Shown one piece after another: positions 1,803 through 35,417 of a DNA stretch of 64,000 nucleotides. Both the position numbers and the translations under genes were made by a program. The stretch comes from Candidatus Sungiibacteriota bacterium (GTDB taxonomy: Bacteria > Patescibacteriota > Minisyncoccia > Sungbacterales > HO2-52-23). The notes beneath the pieces are model-generated. The model was not told the origin of the DNA. It was given only the letters and a program-made list of their open reading frames with translations, and searched no databases. Location of the stretch: positions 590,823 through 654,822 of the forward strand of contig CP066690.1 of NCBI GenBank assembly GCA_016432465.1, read 5' to 3'. Within the stretch, counting starts at the first letter, position 1. Each line of letters opens with the position of its first letter.

Positions 1803-3860
1803 TCAGTTCGGTACGGCCGCGTGAGCGGCCGATTTTTCTTGCTCAACTGACTCGGCAAGCATCTGGCAGTAAAGATTAAGGCCAACTTTATTAATGGCGC
1901 CCGACTGTTCACGTCCAAGAATATTGCCAGCCCCCCTGATCTCTAAATCCTTTAAAGCGATCTCATAACCAGCTCCAAGTTCGGAATATTCTTTTAGCGC
2001 CTCCAGCCGCTCGGCCGCTTTTTCAGTCCCTAGGCTTTCAGCCGGGATCCCGGCCCCGTTGGGCTTAGGGGTAAGGTGACGCGCCCGGTAAAGAAAATAG
2101 GCATAGGCTTTAGTGTCGCTCCTGCCTATTCTGCCCCGCAGCTGGTGCGCTTCGGCAAGGCCGAGGCGCGTGGCGTCATCCACTATAAGAGTGTTGGCTG
2201 AAGAGATATCCAGACCGTTTTCAATGATGGTTGTTGCGAGTAAAATAAGGATTTCTTTGTTTCTAAATTTATCCATCACACGCATAATTTCTTTTTCTTT
2301 CAGACGGCCGTGTACAACCCCGATTAGGGCGTCATTCTTACCTTTAAAGGCGATGCCCCGACGACAACTTGATGACAGAAGCCGTTTCAGTCTATCTCTG
2401 ACCACGTTGATCGTTTCTATTCTATTATGAAGAAAATACACCTGTCCTCCGCGGCCCAGTTCAAATTCAATTGCTCTTTTGATTGGGTTTTTAGAGTAAG
2501 GGAGGACAAACGTTTCAACCGGCAGACGCTCGGGCGGCGGTGTTGCAATTAGCGAAAGATCGCGGAGTTTAGCCAGTGCGAGAGAGAGCGTCCGTGGGAT
2601 GGGAGTTGCGGAAAGCGATAATATATCTACTTCGGCGCGAAGTTCTTTGAAGCGTTCTTTTTGTTTTACACCAAAGCGCTGCTCCTCGTCTATAATTACC
2701 AGCCCCAAATTTTTAAATACCGTGTCTTTGGAAAGAATTCGGTGGGTACCTATAACACAATCAACCCGCCCCTCTTTAACTTCCTGCAAAATTTTTTTCT
2801 CGTCACAGCTTGGCGTTATTCTGGATAGCATTTCACACTCAACAGCCAGATCTTTAAACCGTTCACAGAAAGTTTTTTTGTGCTGTGCTGCCAACACAGT
2901 GGTAGGCGCAAGAAGCGCCACCTGTTTGCCGGAGCAGACTACGCGCAGTGCTGCGCGCAGCGCAAGTTCTGTTTTTCCAAAACCAACATCTCCGCACAAA
3001 ATTCTGTCCATGGGCCGTGATTTTTCAAGGTCATGCAGAATTTCTCCCTCTGCTTTTAGTTGATCTTCTGTTTCTTGATAGGGAAAGGTGTATTTTAGTT
3101 CTTTTTCAAGCAGCGGATCGCCATAATAAGGGGGTCGCTCGGCGTGTTGGCGCGTGGTGTAGAGCTTCAAAAGTTCCTGTGCAAGTTTTTGGGCGTCCTC
3201 CCGGGCCTTGCGTTTGGTGGTCTCCCACAGCGTTCCACCCAGACGGTGTATGCGGGGTGTTTCAAAACCAACGTAAGGCGAAAGGCGGTTTTTTTGATCC
3301 ACGGATACCAGCAAACGGTCTGGTGCAGACCTCATAGAAGGAGGGGCGTACTCTATTACAAAAAATTTTTCAGCGCCTTCCTCTTGGATTCCTTGAAAAA
3401 TTCCAATGCCGTGGTCAACATGCACCACAAAGTTTCCCGGCAGTAATTTTTCTAGGGATCTTGAAGCTGAAAACCTCGGTTTAATTTTTTCTTGCGATTC
3501 TTCCCGCTCCTTGAGGGCGGTGATGCAGTTTCCGTGAAATTCCACGAGATATGGTTTGTTGGTATTGACCGGCCAAATTTCAATAACACCTCCGCGCACC
3601 GCAAATAAACCTCTGCCTGCCACCGAGGCGCTGCGCTCGTACCCAAAATTAGCCACTTGTCTTATAAATTCTCCCGGACGGAGTACAAGATCTTTCTCTA
3701 AAATTACAGCATTTTCACGCCACCACGGATTTATCAGGCGCGCTTTTTTTATGGCCGCGAAGTTTTCTTCAAACCACAAAGCGCCCCGTTCCAAATTCAG
3801 GGGGGTAAGGGAAACGATCAAAAGTTCTTCAGCGTTCTTTTCGGTGCGGTCGTTTGACAT
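1803..3860 (-). CDS. mfd: transcription-repair coupling factor Mfd (short form)
   Basis: [10 protein letters not shown] Walker [22 protein letters not shown]-interaction-like [10 protein letters not shown] and C-terminal [17 protein letters not shown] motif; N-terminal RGGVIEIWP UvrB-homology-like segment. Confidence 0.7.
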
Positions 3861-25808: not shown

Positions 25809-25877
25809 AGTGCTTGACAAAATACCAGTTTGTCTGGTACTATAATAGCACGAGGCTCTTTACAATGGGGGATAACA

Positions 25878-26834
25878 ATGAAGCGGTTCCTTACGGTCGC
25901 GGCCATTTTTGTTTTACTTTTTGGTTTGACCGCGCTAAGTGAAGCGCAAACAACGACGTGTACTGGAACATCAGTAAACTGTAGCAGTAATGCCGGTGGA
26001 GCTGGTGGTCAAGGTGGTAATGCGACAGGTGGGAATGCGACTGCCACAACCGGGAACCAGACTAACCAGCAGACCAATGACCAAACAAACCAACAGACTA
26101 ACCAGCAGACCAATGACCAAACAAACCAACAGACTAATCAGCAGACAACTACCCAGACCCAGAGTCAGGGTGATCAAAGTCAGTCAAATAAGCAGGAGAC
26201 TAAGGTGAGTACTCCAGTACAACCAGTTCCAGTTCCGTCCCCGAACATCACAATGCCCAATGCCACTCAGCCGATTAAACCCGAGGGTTGGGTCAATAAT
26301 TTTGCATTTAAGCCTTCAAAGATGACGTATGAGCAGGCCGAACGTTGTGCTGGGGGAAATGTGGAGAGTTCTTGGGATGGAGGTAAGGTGAAGATGTCGC
26401 GTAGTATCATACTATTTTGGCTAGACAATATGAAATTTCCTACTGCTGATTCCATGGATAATTACGTTGGAACAGCCAAGGCTTCGGATTACGAGCGATC
26501 TTCAAGTATGGCAGTACTTTGTTCGGCAGCACTAAAAGCAATGAGAAATGGTGCTGAAGTAGGGTTTGTGGACTACGTTCATCGTCCCGAGAATCATACC
26601 TCAAGTCGTGGCATTGGCGGAACATTCGGCTTTTCCGGGGTTCCCGGAGGCGGCGGAAACCCGTATGCTATTGCCGGCGGAGGCGGGCCAATGTTTGGAA
26701 GTTCTGATACCCATGTTCGTGGAAGACTCATCGTGCATATCCAGGGTTTTTGCGGTGACCCCTGCCAGGATCAGACAACAAAGAAAGACCCAGGTGATTA
26801 TAAATTCACGTCGGACCTCTACTCGTCAAACTAA
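25878..26834 (+). CDS. secreted low-complexity repeat protein (TNQQTNDQ repeats)
   Basis: signal peptide MKRFLTVAAIFVLLFGLTALSEA; 36-bp tandem repeats 26050-26150; start taken at 25878 inside listed ORF. Confidence 0.55.
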   Translation: MKRFLTVAAIFVLLFGLTALSEAQTTTCTGTSVNCSSNAGGAGGQGGNATGGNATATTGNQTNQQTNDQTNQQTNQQTNDQTNQQTNQQTTTQTQSQGDQSQSNKQETKVSTPVQPVPVPSPNITMPNATQPIKPEGWVNNFAFKPSKMTYEQAERCAGGNVESSWDGGKVKMSRSIILFWLDNMKFPTADSMDNYVGTAKASDYERSSSMAVLCSAALKAMRNGAEVGFVDYVHRPENHTSSRGIGGTFGFSGVPGGGGNPYAIAGGGGPMFGSSDTHVRGRLIVHIQGFCGDPCQDQTTKKDPGDYKFTSDLYSSN

Positions 26835-26896: not shown

Positions 26897-26925
26897 TTGA
26901 CCGCTAAGCAGTCTTCTGCTAAAAT
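26897..26925 (+). promoter_or_regulatory. promoter TTGACC-17nt-TAAAAT positioned 7 nt upstream of the rpsL ATG (leaderless-type)
   Basis: hexamers read directly; no SD between -10 and ATG. Confidence 0.5.
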
Positions 26926-26932
26926 TTCTTTT

Positions 26933-27346
26933 ATGCCGACTATTACGCAGTTAATTAAACACGGGCGCTCGGCCCGCCGCTATAAAGCAAAAGCGCCTGC
27001 TCTTTTGCGCGGATTTAATGTTTTGAAAAATCGCCCCGAATTTTATCCTTCGCCGTTCAAGCGCGGAGTCTGCATCAAAGTAACAACCGTAACACCAAAG
27101 AAACCAAATTCCGCCCTGCGCAAGGTGGCGCGTGTTAGACTTACGAACGGCATGGAAGTTACGGCCTACATCCCGGGAGAAGGGCATAAACTTCAGGAGC
27201 ATTCGGTGGTTTTAATCCGTGGGGGAAGAGTCAAAGATTTGCCGGGAGTTCGGTATCATATTGTGCGTGGTATACTTGATACCACGGGAGTGGAGGGCAG
27301 AAAACAACAACGTTCCAAATATGGAGCAAAAAGGCCAAAACAATAG
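26933..27346 (+). CDS. rpsL: ribosomal protein S12
   Basis: [12 protein letters not shown] start; listed ORF extended upstream to 26897. Confidence 0.9.
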
Positions 27347-27348
27347 TT

Positions 27349-27816
27349 ATGAGAAGGAAAAAGAAATTTCAACGAGAAATAACCTCCGATCAAAAATACA
27401 GCAACGTACAGGTTGCTAAATTTATTAACTACGTTATGCGTAAGGGGAAAAAATCTACCGCCCAGAGGGTTGTTTATAAAACTTTTGATTTGATTGAAAA
27501 AAAATATAAACAGGATCCGCTTGGTGTATTTACCACGGCAGTGCAAAATGCGGGGCCAACTCTTGAAGTACGTTCGCGCCGCATCGGCGGCGCAACTTAT
27601 CAGGTGCCGCGCGAAGTGAGGGGAGATAGAAGGCAAGCCTTGGCGTTTCGTTGGATTCTGGGTGCAGCGCGTTCCAAAAAAGGAAAACCCATGCACGAGA
27701 AATTAGCCGAAGAGTTGGTGGCCGCCACAAAGAATGAAGGTGTGGCAATAAAGAAAAAACTGGACACCCATCGTATGGCCGAGGCAAACAAAGCATTTGC
27801 GCATTTCGCGTGGTAA
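27349..27816 (+). CDS. rpsG: ribosomal protein S7
   Basis: ends ...[12 protein letters not shown]. Confidence 0.9.
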
Positions 27817-27867: not shown

Positions 27868-27937
27868 GTCCCGCACCGAACGAAGTTCTGGTGCGGGAGC
27901 AGAGGCCAATAAGGCGTTTGCTCACTTCGCGTGGTAG
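27868..27937 (+). pseudogene. hairpin (GTCCCGCACC...GGTGCGGGA) plus a second, synonymous-diverged copy of the rpsG 3' end ([12 protein letters not shown]-stop)
   Basis: gcagaggccaataaggcgtttgctcacttcgcgtggtag re-encodes the last 12 codons of rpsG with 9 synonymous changes. Confidence 0.6.
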
Positions 27938-27960: not shown

Positions 27961-28091
27961 CGCCCCGCTCTTTTGTAAACACGCTCGTTTCGCTCCTGCG
28001 GCGAAACTCGCTAATAGTCGGCCGAAGTTTTCTCTGCCTATGGCAGAGAACCAAGCAAACTCCGTCCTCCATTGTTTACAAAAGGGCGGGG
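27961..28091. mobile_element. miniature inverted-repeat element, copy 1
   Basis: TIR CGCCCCGCTCTTTTGTAAAC / GTTTACAAAAGGGCGGGGCTCG; internal GAAGTTTTC and CCGTCCTCCATTGTTT shared with copy at 34170. Confidence 0.6.
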
Positions 28092-28186
28092 CTCGACCGC
28101 TTTACGCTCGCTTATAGAATTTTATTAACGGCCTCGGCCGCATTCTTACTCGCAGTGGGCATTTTTATTTTGTAAAGTATAATTTT

Positions 28187-30316
28187 ATGCCCCGTGACTA
28201 TCCAATAGAAAGAACAAGAGATATAGGTATTATAGCTCATATAGATGCTGGGAAAACGACAGTCACCGAGCGCGTTTTGTTTTACACTGGCGTATCGCAT
28301 AAAATCGGCGAAGTGCATGAGGGAACAACTGTGATGGACTGGATGGAACAGGAGCGGGAACGGGGAATTACTATTACGGCCGCAGCCACCACTTGTTTTT
28401 GGACGCCGACCTATCTCACAACCAACAACCAACAACCAACAACCAACGACGAAAAAAATGAATACCGTATAAACATAATTGATACCCCGGGGCACATTGA
28501 TTTTACGGTGGAGGTTCAGCGCTCATTGCGAGTTTTGGACGGCGCCGTAGTGGTTTTTGACGGCGTGGCCGGAGTGGAGCCGCAATCAGAAACCGTCTGG
28601 CGGCAAGCCGATAAATTTCACGTGCCGCGCATTTGTTTTATCAACAAACTTGACCGCATGGGCGCATCTTTTGAAAAATCTCTTGCTTCAATTTATGAAC
28701 GGCTTACACCCAATGCCGTTGCCGTAACAATTCCGATTGGACACGAGCAAGAGCATGAGGGAGTGATTGATTTGATGCGTATGAGAGCAGTGCGTTTTTT
28801 GGGAGAGCACGGCGAGCAAATAGAGCTTTCCGATATTCCGGAAAATTTAAAATCTTCAGCCGAGGAATGGCGCCACAAAATGGTTGAGAAAATTTCCGAG
28901 TCGGACGAGGCGCTTACGGAAAAATATCTTGAGGGTAAGGAAATTTCCATAGAGGAATTGCGTCGGGCTCTACGTAAAGCAACTCTTGCATATAAACTCG
29001 TTCCGGTTTTCTGCGGCTCGGCCCTAAAAAATAAAGGAGTACAGCTTGTTCTGGACGGTGTTATTGATTATCTGCCTTCACCCCTTGATCTTCCTCCGGT
29101 AAAAGGCATCAATCCCAAAAGCGGCGCGGAAGAGTCACGTGAGGCCAAAGACGATGCCCCTTTTGCCGCGCTTGCTTTTAAACTTCAGTCCGATCCGTAT
29201 GTGGGACAGCTTACTTATTTTCGTGTTTATTCGGGAACGTTGAATGCCGGCTCTTATGTTTTAAATTCTGTGAAAGGAGAGCAAGAACGTGTGGGCAGAA
29301 TTTTGCGGATGCATGCCAACTCCCGCGAAGAGCTAAAAGAAATTAACGCCGGAAATATCGGCGCCATTGTTGGTTTGAAAAATACCCATACCGGAGATAC
29401 CCTCTGCGACCCCGAGCACCCTATTGTGCTGGAAAAAATTATTTTTCCGGAGCCGGTGGTGTCCCTTAAAATTGAACCTAAAACCAAAGCCGATCAGGAA
29501 AAAATGGGGATTGCTCTGCATCGTCTTGGTGAGGAAGACCCCACCTTCCGGATTAAGGGTGATCTGGAAACAGGAGAGACCATTATCTCCGGAATGGGCG
29601 AGCTGCATTTGGAAATTATCGTGGACAGAATGAAGCGTGAGTTTTCGGTTGCGGCCAATGTGGGCCGGCCGCAGGTTGCCTACAAGGAAACAATTAAAAA
29701 ACTGGCCACTGCCGAAGGGAAATATATTCGTCAGTCAGGAGGCCGCGGACAGTACGGACATGTATGGCTTCGGGTGGAGCCGCGGGAGCGCGGCAAGGGC
29801 TTTGAGTTTGTTGATGAAATTAAGGGTGGTATAATTCCCAAAGAGTTTATACCGGCAGTTGAGAAAGGAATTAAGGAAGCAATGGAAAAGGGAGTGCTGG
29901 CAGGATATCCGATGGTGGATATGGAGGTTGCTCTTTATGACGGTTCGTACCACGAAGTTGACTCTTCGGAAGCTGCTTTTAAAATCGCGGGGTCAATTGC
30001 TCTGCAGGAGGCATCTCGCAGAGCAGGGCTTGTGATGCTTGAGCCTATTATGAGAATAGAGGCCGTTCTGCCCGAACAATTTTTGGGAGAGGTGACGGGA
30101 GACTTAAATTCTAAGCGCGGCCGGATTGAGGAAATGTCAGAGCGGGGGCTTGGAATTAAAGTAATTGATGCCAAAGTTCCTTTATCCGAGATGTTTGGAT
30201 ATGTTACGACCCTGCGGTCGTTGACACAGGGAAGGGCCTCCTTCACAATGGAGTTTGATCATTATGAAGAAGTGCCGAACAATATAGCCCAATTGATTAT
30301 TGAAGGAAAAAAGTAA
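28187..30316 (+). CDS. fusA: elongation factor G (with a short [11 protein letters not shown] low-complexity insertion in the G domain)
   Basis: [17 protein letters not shown] etc. Confidence 0.95.
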
Positions 30317-30461
30317 TTTCACAATGTCCCGACGATCGCTTTGCGATGTCGGGATCCCGACTTCCTTATTGATGAATATAAAACGGAGCGTCGGGAGAAT
30401 CTGACCACTATGAGGAGGTGCCGCAGAATATAGCGCAGTTAATTATTGAAGGAAAAAAATA
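30317..30461 (+). pseudogene. hairpin insert followed by a diverged second copy of the fusA 3' end (…[19 protein letters not shown]-stop)
   Basis: TTCACAATG occurs at 30242 and 30318; second copy = first copy + 67-bp insert containing GTCCCGACGATCGCtttGCGATGTCGGGA hairpin. Confidence 0.6.
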
Positions 30462-30479
30462 GGCGCCGTAGGGCGCCAG

Positions 30480-30731
30480 TTAGGACTTTTTTCTCCGACT
30501 TAAGGGGGAAGACATGTGGAGTGTGAACTTTACAACAATACGGGGTCTACCCCTAAGTGTTTCCCCCCGTTGTTTAAAGCGTATAGAAGCCGAAATATAC
30601 GGGTCCGCTTTTCTGATACGCTCGTTTAGCATGTCTAGTAGCACGTCTGTCGTAAGGTGGGGGGAGATTGAGTCGTTGATCAGTTCACGGATTTGTTTCA
30701 AGCTCAGAGTAGCATATGCGTTAATTTTCAT
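30480..30731 (-). CDS. hypothetical small protein
   Basis: GAGGGGTGA SD 4 nt upstream of ATG 30731; no known domain. Confidence 0.5.
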   Translation of the reverse strand: MKINAYATLSLKQIRELINDSISPHLTTDVLLDMLNERIRKADPYISASIRFKQRGETLRGRPRIVVKFTLHMSSPLSRRKKS

Positions 30732-30903
30732 GTAGTCACCCCTCATTTTGCACCACAACCATTAGTAGCAAAACCGGTAAATTTAGTCAAGTACGTTTAT
30801 GAATTTGGATAAAATCAAAAATTTATCAAGGCCTTGATAGCAGGTACTCTATAGAGTAAAATAAGAAGTATAATGCCCACTTTGATAGAAAAAAAATAAA
30901 TTT

Positions 30904-31317
30904 ATGGAGGGACAAGAAAAGATCCCAAAACTAACCAAAGAGGAACTCGCCCGAGATCCTAGGGAGGCTTTTAGAAACTTAGATGCGCATGAGATCTCCC
31001 TTGATTTGTCCAGATTGACCTTAATTGATAAAGGCGTGGAGGAAATCCACCGTTGGTATACAGCTGAGCTGGTAGAGCAAAAACTAGAAGATCCCGAGGG
31101 GTGGTTTAGAAGTCCGAAACACTTCGGTTTATACCACGAGCTTGTAGAAAGGTTAGTTAGGGATACTAAGATTCTTCAAAATGCAACAGGACGGGCTGTC
31201 TTGGAGGAGATGGTTGATAAAATACAAAAGCATGTGGGTGCATATATAGACCCTGTTTCTGCTGTTAACTTCCGGATATTTTTTAAGGAAGCAATAGAGT
31301 TTCTGGGACATAAATAG
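30904..31317 (+). CDS. hypothetical protein
   Basis: 137-aa ORF, no recognisable domain, 10 bp upstream of the next ORF. Confidence 0.45.
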   Translation: MEGQEKIPKLTKEELARDPREAFRNLDAHEISLDLSRLTLIDKGVEEIHRWYTAELVEQKLEDPEGWFRSPKHFGLYHELVERLVRDTKILQNATGRAVLEEMVDKIQKHVGAYIDPVSAVNFRIFFKEAIEFLGHK

Positions 31318-31327
31318 GGTTTTTGAT

Positions 31328-31627
31328 ATGGATTTCTCTAAACTTAAAAACTTAGTAAAGCACAATGGGGATAAATTTGTATTTGTTGAAAATGGGGAGC
31401 CGGAGATGGTGATGATGTCGTTTAAGGAATACGAGAAACTTGCGACCAACGGCAAATATGAAGGGCTGTACCCAACAGATCACGGGTTTCGCCCCCACAA
31501 CGCTGAATTTGCCGACCTTGGGTTTGGGCATTTTAAGGAGACAGAGGTTGTGTTGCCCGGCGGAGGAGAAGGGGCGGGGCTGCCCGTTAGATTAGAAGAT
31601 ATTCGTCTTGAAGATTTGCCTATTTAG
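31328..31627 (+). CDS. Phd/YefM-like antitoxin domain protein with disordered Gly/Pro C-terminal tail
   Basis: N-terminal KFVFVENGEPEMVMMSFKEYEKL resembles YefM ...CVLMSLEEYNSL. Confidence 0.45.
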   Translation: MDFSKLKNLVKHNGDKFVFVENGEPEMVMMSFKEYEKLATNGKYEGLYPTDHGFRPHNAEFADLGFGHFKETEVVLPGGGEGAGLPVRLEDIRLEDLPI

Positions 31628-31740
31628 CATCTTGACTAACCAATTACGTTAAGTTAGGATTAATTTTGTTATCAAAAACATTAAAGTAAGCGAATTTTTC
31701 AAGTTGCATGTCCTCGGGAAATGTAATTTGCGATATATAC

Positions 31741-31761
31741 GCTAAATTTTAGACAAATATG
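31741..31761 (+). promoter_or_regulatory. CTAAATTTTAGACAAAT-ATG motif (also upstream of rpsN at 41107-41127); -10-like TAAATT, no SD
   Basis: near-identical 20-nt blocks directly abutting two start codons. Confidence 0.35.
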
Positions 31762-32952
31762 GCAGAAAAATTTGAGCGAACCAAGCCGCATATAAACGTC
31801 GGAACCATTGGGCACGTTGACCATGGAAAGACGACCCTAACAGCGGCCATAACCAAAATCCTTAGTTTAAAAGGGCTTCCTTCACGCGTAGAGTCAGTGG
31901 ATCAGATTGACAATGCGCCCGAAGAAAAAGCGCGCGGAATTACTATTGCGCTTCATCACTCCGAGTACGAGACCGAGAAGAGGCACTACGCCCACATTGA
32001 CGCTCCGGGACACGCCGACTACATCAAAAATATGATTACTGGCGCAGCCCAGATGGATGGCGCGATTTTGGTTGTTTCCGCATCTGATGGCCCTATGCCG
32101 CAGACTCGGGAGCATATACTTCTGGCGCGGCAAGTCGGGGTACCGGCAGTTGTGGTGTTTTTGAATAAAGTGGATATGGTGGACGATCCGGAGCTAATTG
32201 ACTTAGTGGAAGCAGAAGTGCGGGAGCTCCTTAAAAAGTATGAATTTCCCGGAGACGAAATTCCCGTGATCCGGGGATCAGCCCTCAAGGCGCTTGACGC
32301 CAAATCTGTGGATGACGAATGGGCCAAGAAAATTTTGGAGCTTGTAGGAGCCCTTGATACTTATATTCCCGAACCCGTGCGCGATGTGGACAAGCCTTTC
32401 CTGATGCCTATTGAGGACGTTTTTTCCATTGAGGGCCGAGGTACGGTTGTAACCGGAAGGATTGAAAGAGGTAAAGTAAAACTAAACGATGAGGTTGGGG
32501 TTATTGGCCTTCGCGATACCCAAAAAACTATTGTTACGGGAATTGAGATGTTTAACAAGTCCCTTGATGAAGGAATGGCCGGGGACAATGCGGGTATCCT
32601 TCTACGCGGTCTTAAAAAAGAGGACGTGGAGCGTGGACAGGTAATTGCCAAGCCCGGGTCAGTAACGCCCCATACAGAATTTGAATCAGAGGTTTATATT
32701 CTGACCAAAGAAGAGGGTGGACGCCACACGCCGTTTTTCACCGGCTACAAGCCGCAGTTTTATATCCGCACCACTGATGTGACCGGCGATGTGACGCTTC
32801 CGCAGGGAACGGAAATGGTTATGCCCGGAGACACCATAAAGTTTACGGTAAAACTTATTGTTCCGGTTGCGCTTGAGGAAAAACAGAGGTTTGCAATCAG
32901 AGAGGGGGGTAAAACGGTCGGGGCAGGAGTGGTTACGAAAATTATGAAATAG
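31759..32952 (+). CDS. tuf: elongation factor Tu
   Basis: [21 protein letters not shown]. Confidence 0.95.
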
Positions 32953-33027: not shown

Positions 33028-33360
33028 TTGGCAGCAAAAAAAGAAGCAGAAATTAAGCCCAAACTGCGCATTAAAGTTCGAGCCTACGACTCGAAGATTA
33101 TTGATAATTCGGTCAAACAGATTGTGGATACGGCAGTACGAAACGGAGCGGAAGTGGTGGGGCCGGTGCCTTTGCCAACAGAAATGCATAAATATACTGT
33201 CAACCGCTCCAGTTTTGTCCACAAAAACGCCCGGGAACAATTTGAGATGCGGGTGCATAAGCGCCTGATTGATATTTTAAATCCAACCCCAAAAACTATT
33301 GATGCGCTGACAAATCTAAATCTGCCGGCGGGAGTAGATATAGAGATTAAAATGATGTGA
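33028..33360 (+). CDS. rpsJ: ribosomal protein S10 (TTG start)
   Basis: [21 protein letters not shown]... Confidence 0.85.
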
Positions 33361-33525
33361 TTTAATTTCGGTGGAGCACTGAATTCTATTTCGTTTATAA
33401 CGCGAGATAGAATTGAGTGATTCAATCACTCATCGGTTGTCATTATGGTAATCAATATTTTTACATTTTAGGAAATAAAAACCCGCCGTGTTTTGCTACG
33501 CCGGGAAACCGGCTTTTTTGTTACC

Positions 33526-34158
33526 ATGAAATTCGTATTAGGAGAAAAATTAGGAATGAGTCAGATTTTTGATAAAGAAGGCAATGTCATTCCGGTGACG
33601 CTTGTTAAGGCAACACCAAATGTAGTTTTGCAAATAAAAACCAAGGAAAAAGACGGGTATGAAGCAATTCAGATTGGGGCAGGAGAGCGGAAAGCCAAAA
33701 ATATAAAAAAGCCGCAGAGGGGGCATTTTTCCGCCGGAGGCGGGTCCGCCTTTGGCGGAAAAAATTTGGGGAATTTTCGCTACGTGCGTGAGTTTAAGAC
33801 AGCAGACAAACCGGAACGAGGTCAAAAAATTGATGTATCAGTTTTTCAAGAGGGCGACAAGGTAAAAGTAAGCGGAATTTCCAAAGGAAAAGGGTTTCAG
33901 GGCGTGGTAAAACGTCACGGATTTCACGGGGCGCCCGCAACGCACGGCACCAAGCACGCCCATCGCCAGCCGGGGTCCATTGGCGCCACTTGGCCGCAAA
34001 GAGTGATAAAAGGAATGCGAATGGCAGGAAGAATGGGTGGCGATAGGGTGAGCGTGAGAAATTTAAAAATAGCGAAGGTGGATTTAGAGAATAATATATT
34101 AGCGATAAAAGGAGCAGTACCGGGGAGACGAGGGACGTTACTTGAGATTAGAGGATAG
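33526..34158 (+). CDS. rplC: ribosomal protein L3
   Basis: MKFVLGEKLGMSQIFD start; preceded by hairpin GCCGGgaaaCCGGC + TTTTTT. Confidence 0.9.
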   Translation: MKFVLGEKLGMSQIFDKEGNVIPVTLVKATPNVVLQIKTKEKDGYEAIQIGAGERKAKNIKKPQRGHFSAGGGSAFGGKNLGNFRYVREFKTADKPERGQKIDVSVFQEGDKVKVSGISKGKGFQGVVKRHGFHGAPATHGTKHAHRQPGSIGATWPQRVIKGMRMAGRMGGDRVSVRNLKIAKVDLENNILAIKGAVPGRRGTLLEIRG

Positions 34159-34169
34159 TGCGGGTTTTC

Positions 34170-34348
34170 TCGGAGATTTCTTTTGTAAACACGATTCGGT
34201 CGCTCCAGTGCCTAGGCCCTTCGGGCCGGCATCCCGGCAGCAAAGCTGCCTAGGGACGGCGACCTCACTAAGGGTCGGACGAAGTTTTCCGCCTTCGGCA
34301 GAAACCAAGCAACTCCGTCCTCCCATTGTTTCCAAAAGAAATCTCCGA
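34170..34348. mobile_element. miniature inverted-repeat element, copy 2 (longer internal segment)
   Basis: TIR CGGAGATTTCTTTTGTAAAC / GTTTCCAAAAGAAATCTCCG. Confidence 0.6.
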
Positions 34349-34426
34349 GGCCCGCGTGGAGATAATAATCTCCACCCATTAGAGAAGAGGGGTGGAATAT
34401 GAAAAGAGCGACCGCGAGGGTCGCAA

Positions 34427-34732
34427 CTACTGGCGGTTGCGAAACAAAATATGAAGTAGTCCTAAGACAATGCAAAATGGTCCTGTGAGGAATAAAAACC
34501 GTACTATCAGGATCGTGTGCCATTGGGGCCCTGTAATATCTTCAATGGTGACAGGTGAGAAGAATAGTCTCACAAACCAGGAACTAATTGACCAAACCAG
34601 AAGCAAGAACACCACACTTAGTACAAGGTTGAGATGTTTACCATGTCGCGAGCGCCAAAAAAATAGACCGCTTGCGCCTATCACGCCATAAACTGTACTT
34701 TCAAGCAAAATAGTCATAAAAAGTGGATCCAT
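34427..34732 (-). CDS. small 3-TM membrane protein encoded antisense inside the rplC-rplD gap
   Basis: GGAGG SD 5 nt upstream of ATG 34732; hydrophobic. Confidence 0.4.
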   Translation of the reverse strand: MDPLFMTILLESTVYGVIGASGLFFWRSRHGKHLNLVLSVVFLLLVWSISSWFVRLFFSPVTIEDITGPQWHTILIVRFLFLTGPFCIVLGLLHILFRNRQ

Positions 34733-34778
34733 CGCAACCTCCGGTTTAGGTGCTAAATCTATTGTATAGGATAATTGC

Positions 34779-35417
34779 ATGATTGTCAATCTCTACAACC
34801 AATCAGCCAAAAAAGTAGGAACGGTAGATTTACCCGAGGCAGTGTTTGGTTTGAAGTGGAATGCTGACTTGGTGCATCAGGTGGTGACTTCACAGGCCGC
34901 GAATCTGCGAAGTCCTGTTGCGCACGCCAAAGGCAGGAGCGAGGTTCGCGGCGGAGGAAGAAAGCCGTGGCGGCAGAAAGGTACGGGTAGAGCGCGGCAC
35001 GGGTCTATCCGATCCCCGCTTTGGAAAGGAGGCGGAGTGACCCACGGTCCGCTGACCGAGAAAAATTACAAAAAGAAAATCAACAAGAAAATGGCGCGGC
35101 GCGCCCTGTATACAGTACTTTCTGCCAAAGCGCGCGATAACGAAATTATAGTTCTTGACGACTTGAAGTTTAAAGAAGCCAAAACCAAATACGCCGCCCA
35201 AATGTTTGCAAAATTTGTAAAAGAAAAAGAGTTTAGCCGCATCACCAAGGGCCGCGGCGTGCTAATTGCGCTTCCGGAAAAAAATGAAATCCTGCGCCGT
35301 GCCATGCGCAATCTTCCTTATATAGAAATTGACGAGGCGCGAAATTTAAATGCGCATGAGGTTTTGCAGTATAAGTTTTTACTGCTGCCTCAAAAGACGC
35401 TTGAAGTGTTTACATAG
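34779..35417 (+). CDS. rplD: ribosomal protein L4
   Basis: GGGRKPWRQKGTGRAR. Confidence 0.9.
   Translation: MIVNLYNQSAKKVGTVDLPEAVFGLKWNADLVHQVVTSQAANLRSPVAHAKGRSEVRGGGRKPWRQKGTGRARHGSIRSPLWKGGGVTHGPLTEKNYKKKINKKMARRALYTVLSAKARDNEIIVLDDLKFKEAKTKYAAQMFAKFVKEKEFSRITKGRGVLIALPEKNEILRRAMRNLPYIEIDEARNLNAHEVLQYKFLLLPQKTLEVFT

Follow-up and report, generated by a model that had tools for sequence, protein, structure and literature searches.

In characterised antitoxins of the Phd/YefM family the N-terminal domain is a dimeric DNA-binding module, and these type II antitoxins (PF02604; E. coli YefM, phage P1 Phd) are patchily distributed and mobile. Antitoxins that lack a linked toxin are documented as well, and such orphans have been proposed to serve as anti-addiction modules that neutralise incoming toxins (PMC7354431, section 4.2). 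We analysed the interval between fusA and tuf in a 64,000-nt window (contig CP066690.1) of a Candidatus Sungiibacteriota genome, assembled from the metagenome of groundwater and representing an uncultivated member of the Sungbacteria (Parcubacteria group; candidate phyla radiation, CPR, or Patescibacteria); coordinates refer to this window unless a sister locus is named. The interval is bounded on the left by fusA, encoding the 709-aa EF-G (28187-30316, + strand; taken from the list of open reading frames, ORFs, and 80-90% identical by tblastn to the EF-G of sister loci), and on the right by tuf, encoding the 397-aa EF-Tu (31759-32952, +; ORF list and sister-locus comparison), with 1442 bp from the end of the one to the start of the other. 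An original prediction, made from the sequence, had described here an 83-aa ORF on the opposite strand with a strong Shine-Dalgarno (SD) site and a co-directional pair of 137 and 99 aa only 10 bp apart, all of which are present (ORF83, ORF137 and ORF99), and had read the three as a single accessory insert. We find instead that ORF99 belongs to the str operon as a resident gene, conserved in the Sungbacteria and in part of the neighbouring Parcubacteria, while the stretch between fusA and ORF99 is a fast-turnover recombination hotspot, in which ORF137 and ORF83 are unique to the window genome. Our preferred reading of these two layers, which we hold with modest confidence, is that ORF99 would be a domesticated solo antitoxin-type protein that uses its tail on a conserved partner, set beside a slot of rapidly changing content.

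The premise that fusA and tuf are normally adjacent fails in this lineage, where ORF99 lies between them. A search of 5.8 billion proteins gave at least 79 full-length homologues of ORF99 (31328-31627, +), of 77-163 aa, whose contexts we recovered from two long contigs, 20 species-representative genomes (by family-profile search) and the two closest relatives. In every recovered context (24 of 24 loci, plus L111-L113) the order on one strand was fusA, the homologue, tuf and rpsJ. Because these loci had been fetched through ORF99 itself, we built an independent sample by scanning metagenome contigs with the C-terminal 150 aa of EF-G alone. This returned 80 loci, 14 of which held a family member, always on the + strand and directly after fusA; in all 11 carriers with a visible tuf it preceded that gene, and we found no member elsewhere in these loci. 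Both loci with a fusA C-terminal identity of ~80% or more carried the family, and many contigs at 57-75% fusA identity had a fusA-tuf gap of 35-320 bp with no ORF99-family gene. All told, the ~38 other loci examined (these 14 included) each had a family member between fusA and tuf in the orientation of these genes, and the family was found only there, which is not the patchy and mobile distribution of TA genes; a scan of the viral contigs of IMG/VR did not find it. In compact loci the homologue starts 2-18 bp after fusA, and the 90-320 bp that remain before tuf hold no ORF. The synteny comparison suggested with the original prediction, under which a conserved gene at the fusA-tuf junction would count against an accessory insert, thus came out that way for ORF99 and the other way for ORF137 and ORF83: fixed position and strand, together with the purifying selection described below, mark ORF99 as a str-operon gene and do not mark the other two.

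The N-terminus of ORF99 (aa 1-40; 31328-31447, +) has the Phd/YefM likeness that had been noticed earlier. Residues 2-38 match Pfam PhdYeFM_antitox (PF02604) at positions 12-48 of 74, with E=6.8e-5 and 23 bits against a cutoff of 29.8, and 75 of the 79 family members match at E<=0.01 (best 4.3e-7), as do several divergent members. By hhalign, the family aligned to E. coli YefM over 31 columns around ..NGE..V.MS..EY..L (E=0.0016). AlphaFold2 (AF2), given the 79-sequence alignment, modelled a short helix, a beta-hairpin at 16-30 (strands 16-21 and 24-30) and a helix at 32-40; residues 41-85 were disordered, and the last ten residues reached a confidence score (pLDDT) of 84. Half-domain homology to Phd/YefM is thus likely by profile comparison, the shared segment corresponding to beta2-beta3-alpha (..NGEP..V(M/L)S..EYE.L). 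ORF99 further resembles these antitoxins in being small and acidic, with a disordered C-terminal half that ends in a conserved module of the partner-binding type. It differs in lacking the first strand and part of helix 1, in the sequence of its tail, which is unlike the YoeB- or Doc-binding regions, in having no adjacent toxin gene, and in being fixed in the str operon across a phylum-level lineage. Profile matches of the family in the PDB to retinol-binding protein (E 0.0035) and bL28 (0.022) were short and compositional, and we rejected them.

The C-terminal half had been predicted to be a Gly/Pro-rich disordered tail; a disordered linker is indeed present, variable in length (35-100 residues in the family), but it is followed by a 16-residue motif that is the most constant part of the protein (GLPVRLEDIRLEDLPI; 31577-31624, +). 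The family C-terminus reads G-L-P-V-R-L-E-D-I-R-L-E-D-L-P-[IVL], that is, a near-invariant peptide GLPVRLEDIRLEDLP[IVL]-COOH, and seven of its positions (R-12, D-9, I-8, L-6, D-4, L-3 and P-2) are invariant in 79 of 79 proteins. Within the C-terminal ~30 residues, a median of 13 residues N-terminal to this tail, an E-T-E-[FLV] motif occurs in 53 of the 79, and E-T-E-F-V is ~50-60% conserved in the family. Across 21 loci the tail codons differ freely at synonymous sites, and Nei-Gojobori estimates gave a saturated pS of ~0.83 with pN/pS of 0.11 for the tail and 0.25 for the N-domain. Because synonymous sites vary freely and are saturated, the invariance acts on the protein and not on DNA or RNA, which rules out a nucleic acid element as its cause; the tail is under strong purifying selection at the protein level. 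Searches of the PDB with the tail peptide found nothing, nor did searches with the second subfamily described next, and within the window the only SSB-like acidic tail motif is that of ORF99 itself. This second subfamily lies just after fusA in more distant CPR-like contigs (L035, L037, L038, L043, L045, L047, L067 and L068); it has the same N-domain as ORF99 together with a different conserved middle helix (EELLDKINRDIAIWK), a W-x-IP motif and acidic tails (EEDRQYLEEVIF, DEYYFEPVEDED).

With an N-domain of a type that binds DNA as a dimer, ORF99 might be an autoregulator, holding an operator with this domain and thereby controlling transcription of tuf and the S10 operon. Promoter-like hexamers do occur in many of the sister ORF99-tuf spacers (in the window, by consensus match, TTGACT-17-TAGGAT 5' of tuf at 31632-31660, +), and an imperfect palindrome lies just 5' of tuf at 31725-31748. 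The spacer sequence is otherwise without conservation, however, and a conserved operator, leader or shared palindrome was looked for across the sister loci and not found. Apart from the truncation of the domain, two arginines that matter for DNA binding in YefM have no counterpart in the hhalign register: opposite Arg31 stands a hydrophobic residue that varies, and Arg10 would precede the first residue of ORF99. The acidity of the family (median pI 4.66) also speaks against operator binding, and autoregulation gives no role to the invariant tail. We consider this explanation quite improbable.

The preferred reading, domestication, gives the tail the central role. ORF99 would dimerise through its N-domain, as its relatives do, and its tethered C-terminal ~30 residues would capture a highly conserved putative partner, which might be a translation GTPase or the ribosome, or alternatively a conserved toxin encoded elsewhere. 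The arrangement recalls adaptors that work through a tethered peptide, such as SspB with its ClpX-binding tail, SSB with its acidic ...DDDIPF tip, and the archaeal and eukaryotic ribosomal P-stalk, whose acidic-hydrophobic C-terminal peptide recruits translation GTPases. ORF99 likewise has an N-domain (putatively oligomerising), a long flexible linker and an invariant acidic-hydrophobic C-terminus (...LEDLPI-COOH), and, in favour of the P-stalk analogy, its gene lies among those of translation factors; it has no sequence homology to any of the three, and bacteria differ from the P-stalk case in using bL12 for GTPase recruitment. A component of the translation machinery is our tentative choice of partner, by analogy and at a fairly low probability, because the gene follows fusA by 2-18 bp in compact genomes, always directly precedes tuf, and has this tethered-peptide-like architecture. 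More speculatively, and we think it rather unlikely, the family could be an antitoxin-born translation factor of CPR bacteria, a YefM-like dimer, produced together with EF-G and EF-Tu, that would dock its tail on the ribosome or a translational GTPase and so regulate, protect or recruit its target. A part in docking may also fall to the E-T-E-F-V motif, which resembles the [QE]-T-D-F-V signature that EF-Ts inserts into EF-Tu, and the second subfamily would then represent another version of this design. Should ORF99 indeed act on the ribosome, EF-Tu or EF-G, an antitoxin scaffold would clearly have been co-opted into core translation, and CPR bacteria, already known for unusual ribosomes, would have gained a lineage-specific component of their translation apparatus. 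Whatever the mechanism, ORF99 represents a small unnamed protein family, an antitoxin-scaffold variant fixed between EF-G and EF-Tu, and its near-invariant 16-residue tail and fixed synteny make it a concrete and testable target.

Several points weigh against this domestication reading. The Pfam match falls below the gathering cutoff and covers half of the domain, and Foldseek returned no significant neighbour for the ORF99 model, the best being a PfiAT antitoxin chain at E=1.4. In the AF2 model, the fairly high confidence of the tail could reflect its packing back on the N-domain, that is, a structural role; the second subfamily, in which the N-domain is retained while the tails are altogether different, makes a purely structural role less likely. 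Outside Sungbacteria the distribution is patchy, members being absent from several contigs at 65-75% fusA identity; the family is therefore lineage-restricted and not universally required. The operon context amounts to guilt by association, and fusA and ORF99 are set apart in the window by the ORF137 cassette and a hairpin resembling a terminator, so that co-expression with fusA is not assured. Finally, a secondary functional link between ORF137 and ORF99 is conceivable because of their 10-nt spacing and because the slot in which ORF137 sits normally bears TA genes.

That slot, between fusA and ORF99, is the second layer of the interval. Its length ranges from 2 bp (L010), 6 bp (L112) and 14-18 bp (L017, L003) to 2.2 kb (L005) and 3.3 kb (L009), and close relatives differ in what it holds: it is empty in some, and otherwise there are HicB/HicA together with MazF/PemK and a small ORF upstream of the latter in L005 and L009, HicAB in L024, a HicB fragment in L022, MazE-like and PIN genes in the closest relative (L111), DUF4258/DUF2283 in L014 and L050, and, as we read the sequences, RelE/ParE-like pairs in L078. 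Family matches had E-values of 2e-22 (MazF), 1.5e-12 (HicB), 2e-15 (HicA) and 1e-14 (DUF2283). The earlier proposal that TA-type cargo lands at this junction is thus true of the locus in relatives, though not of the pair for which it was made. Like the TA and defence hotspots that lie between core genes, the slot is bounded by conserved genes (fusA on one side, ORF99 and tuf on the other), but it is very small (0-3.3 kb), lies inside a translation operon and has no integrase, and the scars it bears are not att sites on either side of the cargo but short duplicated stretches of the adjoining gene ends. The Sungbacteria fusA-tuf junction can be regarded as a miniature hotspot that gathers TA modules and ORFans inside a housekeeping operon, with duplicated gene ends as its scars. 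A minus-strand family of 115-146 aa with C-x2-C (Zn-ribbon-like) motifs also recurs directly 3' of fusA (L008 3628-3984; L009 828-1268 and 1803-2213; L111 1071-1418; all -), with E down to 1e-10 between members; Pfam had no match to the one member searched, and the family is recurrent hotspot cargo.

The main rival to domestication draws on this setting: ORF99 would be a working orphan antitoxin, an anti-addiction guard whose C-terminal module neutralises an unlinked or incoming toxin, and which, through steady expression with the str operon, would shield cells of a lineage in which TA modules invade the fusA-tuf junction again and again. ORF99 keeps the full architecture for this, with a Phd/YefM-like N-domain, disorder and a conserved ~30-aa C-terminal module of the sort that folds upon a toxin; it sits in a TA hotspot; and, like the orphans for which an anti-addiction role was proposed (PMC7354431), it is homologous to antitoxins but has no toxin linked to it. 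Most orphans, however, are remnants that vary from strain to strain, whereas ORF99 is syntenic and strongly selected in at least 20 species, between translation-factor genes, which is unusual for TA components in general. An adjacent toxin was present in none of the ~38 loci, the TA modules of the slot (HicAB, MazEF, VapBC) come with antitoxins of their own and are not of the kind that pairs with Phd, and a Fic/Doc motif was not found within the window. We regard this rival as unlikely.

Traces of earlier recombination are found on both sides of ORF83. A diverged relic of the fusA 3' end, part of the earlier description and confirmed here, follows the gene at 30397-30463 (+) and encodes a 21-residue peptide (protein alignment score 97); its positions 30397-30461 are 82% identical over 65 nt to 30251-30315. 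Between the fusA end and the relic lies a hairpin element (30317-30396, +) of two adjacent hairpins (z=-3.2) with inverted repeats, whose ends, TTTCACAATGTCCCGA ... TCGGGAGAAT, are kept in L111 as TTTyACrATGTCCCGA ... TCGGGAGAAT. Farther on, at 30799-30837 (+), is a relic of the 5' end of an ORF99-family gene, ATG AAT TTG GAT AAA ATC AAA AAT TTA ... (MNLDKIKNLSRP*), 97% identical over 33 nt to L111 2393-2425, upstream of the ORF99 homologue there, and 89% over 28 nt to the true start of the homologue in L003, L004 and L015. The window and L111 therefore have the same layout, namely fusA, hairpin element, fusA 3' relic, slot A, ORF99 5' relic, slot B, ORF99 and tuf, with different fillings: slot A holds ORF83 in the window and a 115-aa ORF with VapBC in L111, and slot B a promoter-like site with ORF137 in the window and ~80 nt in L111. 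Tails of fusA were not found as relics in 18 other sister loci, the equivalent being present in L111 only. Since the relics are common to both genomes and the cargo is not, the duplications either are older than the present cargo or arose independently of it. Gene ends differ from their relics by changes of the synonymous type, which would fit recombination with DNA from related strains, for which either homology-facilitated illegitimate recombination or Campbell-type insertion would work. In the same operon the 3' end of rpsG is likewise duplicated (functional 27778-27815, relic 27899-27936; 38 nt at 82%, with the same encoded end), end and relic being separated by ~83 nt with two GC hairpins, and gene-end duplication by short insertions thus seems to recur here.

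These comparisons bear directly on the view that the three ORFs form one accessory insert that arrived with the fusA-end duplication, ORF137 and ORF99 being a TA or defence module in reversed order. The 10-nt spacing of this pair, the antitoxin-like homology of ORF99 and the TA cargo in the slot of relatives all made such a module plausible. Yet ORF99, resident in every related locus examined, occurs without ORF137 in the ~38 others, and the two therefore are not a co-inherited reversed TA pair; ORF137 has no homologue and no toxin or defence similarity. Delivery of the cargo by the duplication process is contradicted by L111, where the same fusA relic and hairpin element accompany different cargo. 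Nor do direct repeats flank the cargo as in a genomic island: the two fusA-end copies, 146 nt apart from start to start, enclose only the ~80-nt hairpin element, with the ORFs outside, and neither the ORF list nor the family libraries gave an integrase or recombinase in 30317-31758. What stands of the accessory insert is the genome-specific part, ORF83 and ORF137. A co-inherited three-gene module is refuted by the comparative data already, and the broader insert explanation we consider barely credible; to judge from these loci, it is insertion that has brought ORF137 next to ORF99, and the two do not form a functional TA pair. An antitoxin-like gene beside an unknown ORF was here a false TA call, of a kind that comparative synteny resolves quickly.

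ORF137 (30904-31317, +) and ORF83 (30480-30731, -) matched only themselves in the 5.8 billion proteins (word index), as did ORF137 in an exhaustive phmmer search of 1.84 billion cluster representatives. No counterpart of either was found in ~110 related loci by tblastn, blastp or blastn, nor of ORF137 in phages and plasmids (tblastn) or IMG/VR, nor of ORF83 in phages (tblastn). Pfam, NCBIfam, PADLOC and PHROGs gave no match to either (for ORF137 at E<=1), and PADLOC-DB gave none of meaning to any of the three proteins, the only one being ORF99 to Csm3 at E=0.035 and 11 bits. ORF137 is acidic and all-helical, and the structure prediction suggested for it did not reveal a toxin-like fold: the AF2 model is helical and of low confidence (pLDDT 60), its best Foldseek hits (E 0.77) were generic helical repeats, and a PDB sequence search gave no match. 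By sequence or fold it belongs to none of the known toxin families considered (Doc/Fic, YoeB/RelE, PIN, MazF, HicA).

Are these ORFs genes at all? We scored codon usage by log-odds trained on the 47 long ORFs of the window and compared the scores with those of 110 shadow ORFs. ORF99, at 0.346, is supported as a real gene. ORF137 (0.236) scored above all 110 shadow ORFs and within the range of real genes, and on this evidence is probably a real gene, to which homology assigns no function. ORF83 scored 0.095, at the 92nd percentile of shadow ORFs and the 10th percentile of real-gene chunks, and its status as a gene is equivocal. It is possible, if on balance doubtful, that ORF83, and less likely ORF137, are non-genes, chance or decaying ORFs in junk DNA left by recombination. 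In keeping with this, the region is full of relics, neither ORF has homologues, and the codon score of ORF83 lies within the shadow range; ORF83 is absent from the NCBI annotation and known from Logan assemblies only, where it is called as 88 aa. On the other side stand the codon usage of ORF137 and the signals around ORF83, which has a GAGGGG SD-like site 6 nt before its ATG (alternative starts give 88 or 92 aa) and a terminator-like GC hairpin, GGCGCC-CTAC-GGCGCC with a T-run (30462-30477, -).

Alternatively ORF137, with or without ORF83, could be selfish or defensive cargo of a novel kind, a new type of toxin or immunity protein lodged independently of ORF99. In relatives, all the slot cargo that can be identified consists of TA modules; ORF137 resembles real genes in codon usage and is preceded by a promoter-like site of its own (TTGATA-17-TAAAAT, matching 10/12 of the consensus, at 30834-30862, +, a kind of site no more numerous than in shuffled sequence); and ORF83 is divergent, small and basic (pI 11), as regulators can be. 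Set against these are the lack of similarity to any toxin, defence or phage family and the absence of any partner recognisable from an operon arrangement. ORFans are very common in CPR genomes, so that location by itself is weak evidence for a cargo role. ORF137 is present in nine public contigs, all from a single groundwater study and all 100% identical to the window, and these therefore carry no selection or population signal. We would not expect this explanation to hold, while allowing it some weight. A supposed distant homology of ORF83 to a minus-strand 76-aa ORF of L013 was unsupported (E=15).

One groundwater run, SRR12113430, contains both the window organism (L105, with the 1.4-kb interval) and a related Sungbacterium (L004) in which 18 bp separate fusA from the ORF99 homologue. 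In Logan, every contig of the window organism is broken within fusA and tuf, and the probable reason is that relatives living alongside it have these conserved sequences in common with it.

The surrounding genes, all on the + strand, are rpsL (26897-27346) and rpsG (27349-27816) before fusA, and rpsJ (33028-33360), rplC (33493-34158) and rplD (34779-35417) after tuf. We found nothing in the literature on this fusA-tuf gene arrangement, and Rfam at E<=1 across 25-36 kb gave only chance matches of the miRNA type, all outside the fusA-tuf interval. In EF-G, residues ~72-95 (window 28400-28480) form a Thr/Asn/Gln-rich loop, longer than in typical EF-G, between TTCFW and the next conserved segment of the G-domain. 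The product of 25830-26834, just 5' of rpsL, is a 334-aa protein, hydrophobic at its N-terminus, in which 12-nt tandem repeats (26058-26165) encode a region rich in Thr, Asn and Gln; it is probably a secreted or surface repeat protein. The rplC-rplD spacer is unusually long (620 bp) and carries a 120-aa hydrophobic, membrane-like ORF (34427-34789, -) that overlaps the start of rplD and is another lineage-specific insertion in the S10 operon. Among sister loci, L001 has an unannotated 196-aa gene between rpsG and fusA (2624-3214), and small unannotated genes follow rpsJ in L001 (8344-8598, 84 aa) and L003 (8066-8569, 167 aa). The whole str/S10 operon is unusually tolerant of insertions in Sungbacteria.

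Two copies of an inverted-repeat element also occur in the window, one in the rpsG-fusA spacer (27962-28092) and one in the rplC-rplD spacer (34169-34349), neither with a match in Rfam. Their arms (..CTTTTGTAAACA / TGTTTnCAAAAG..) are 20-23 nt long and 95-96% complementary, and the copies have a common internal core, ..CGAAGTTT..GCC..GGCAGA.AACCAAGCAA..; the element may be a miniature inverted-repeat transposable element or an undescribed structured RNA.

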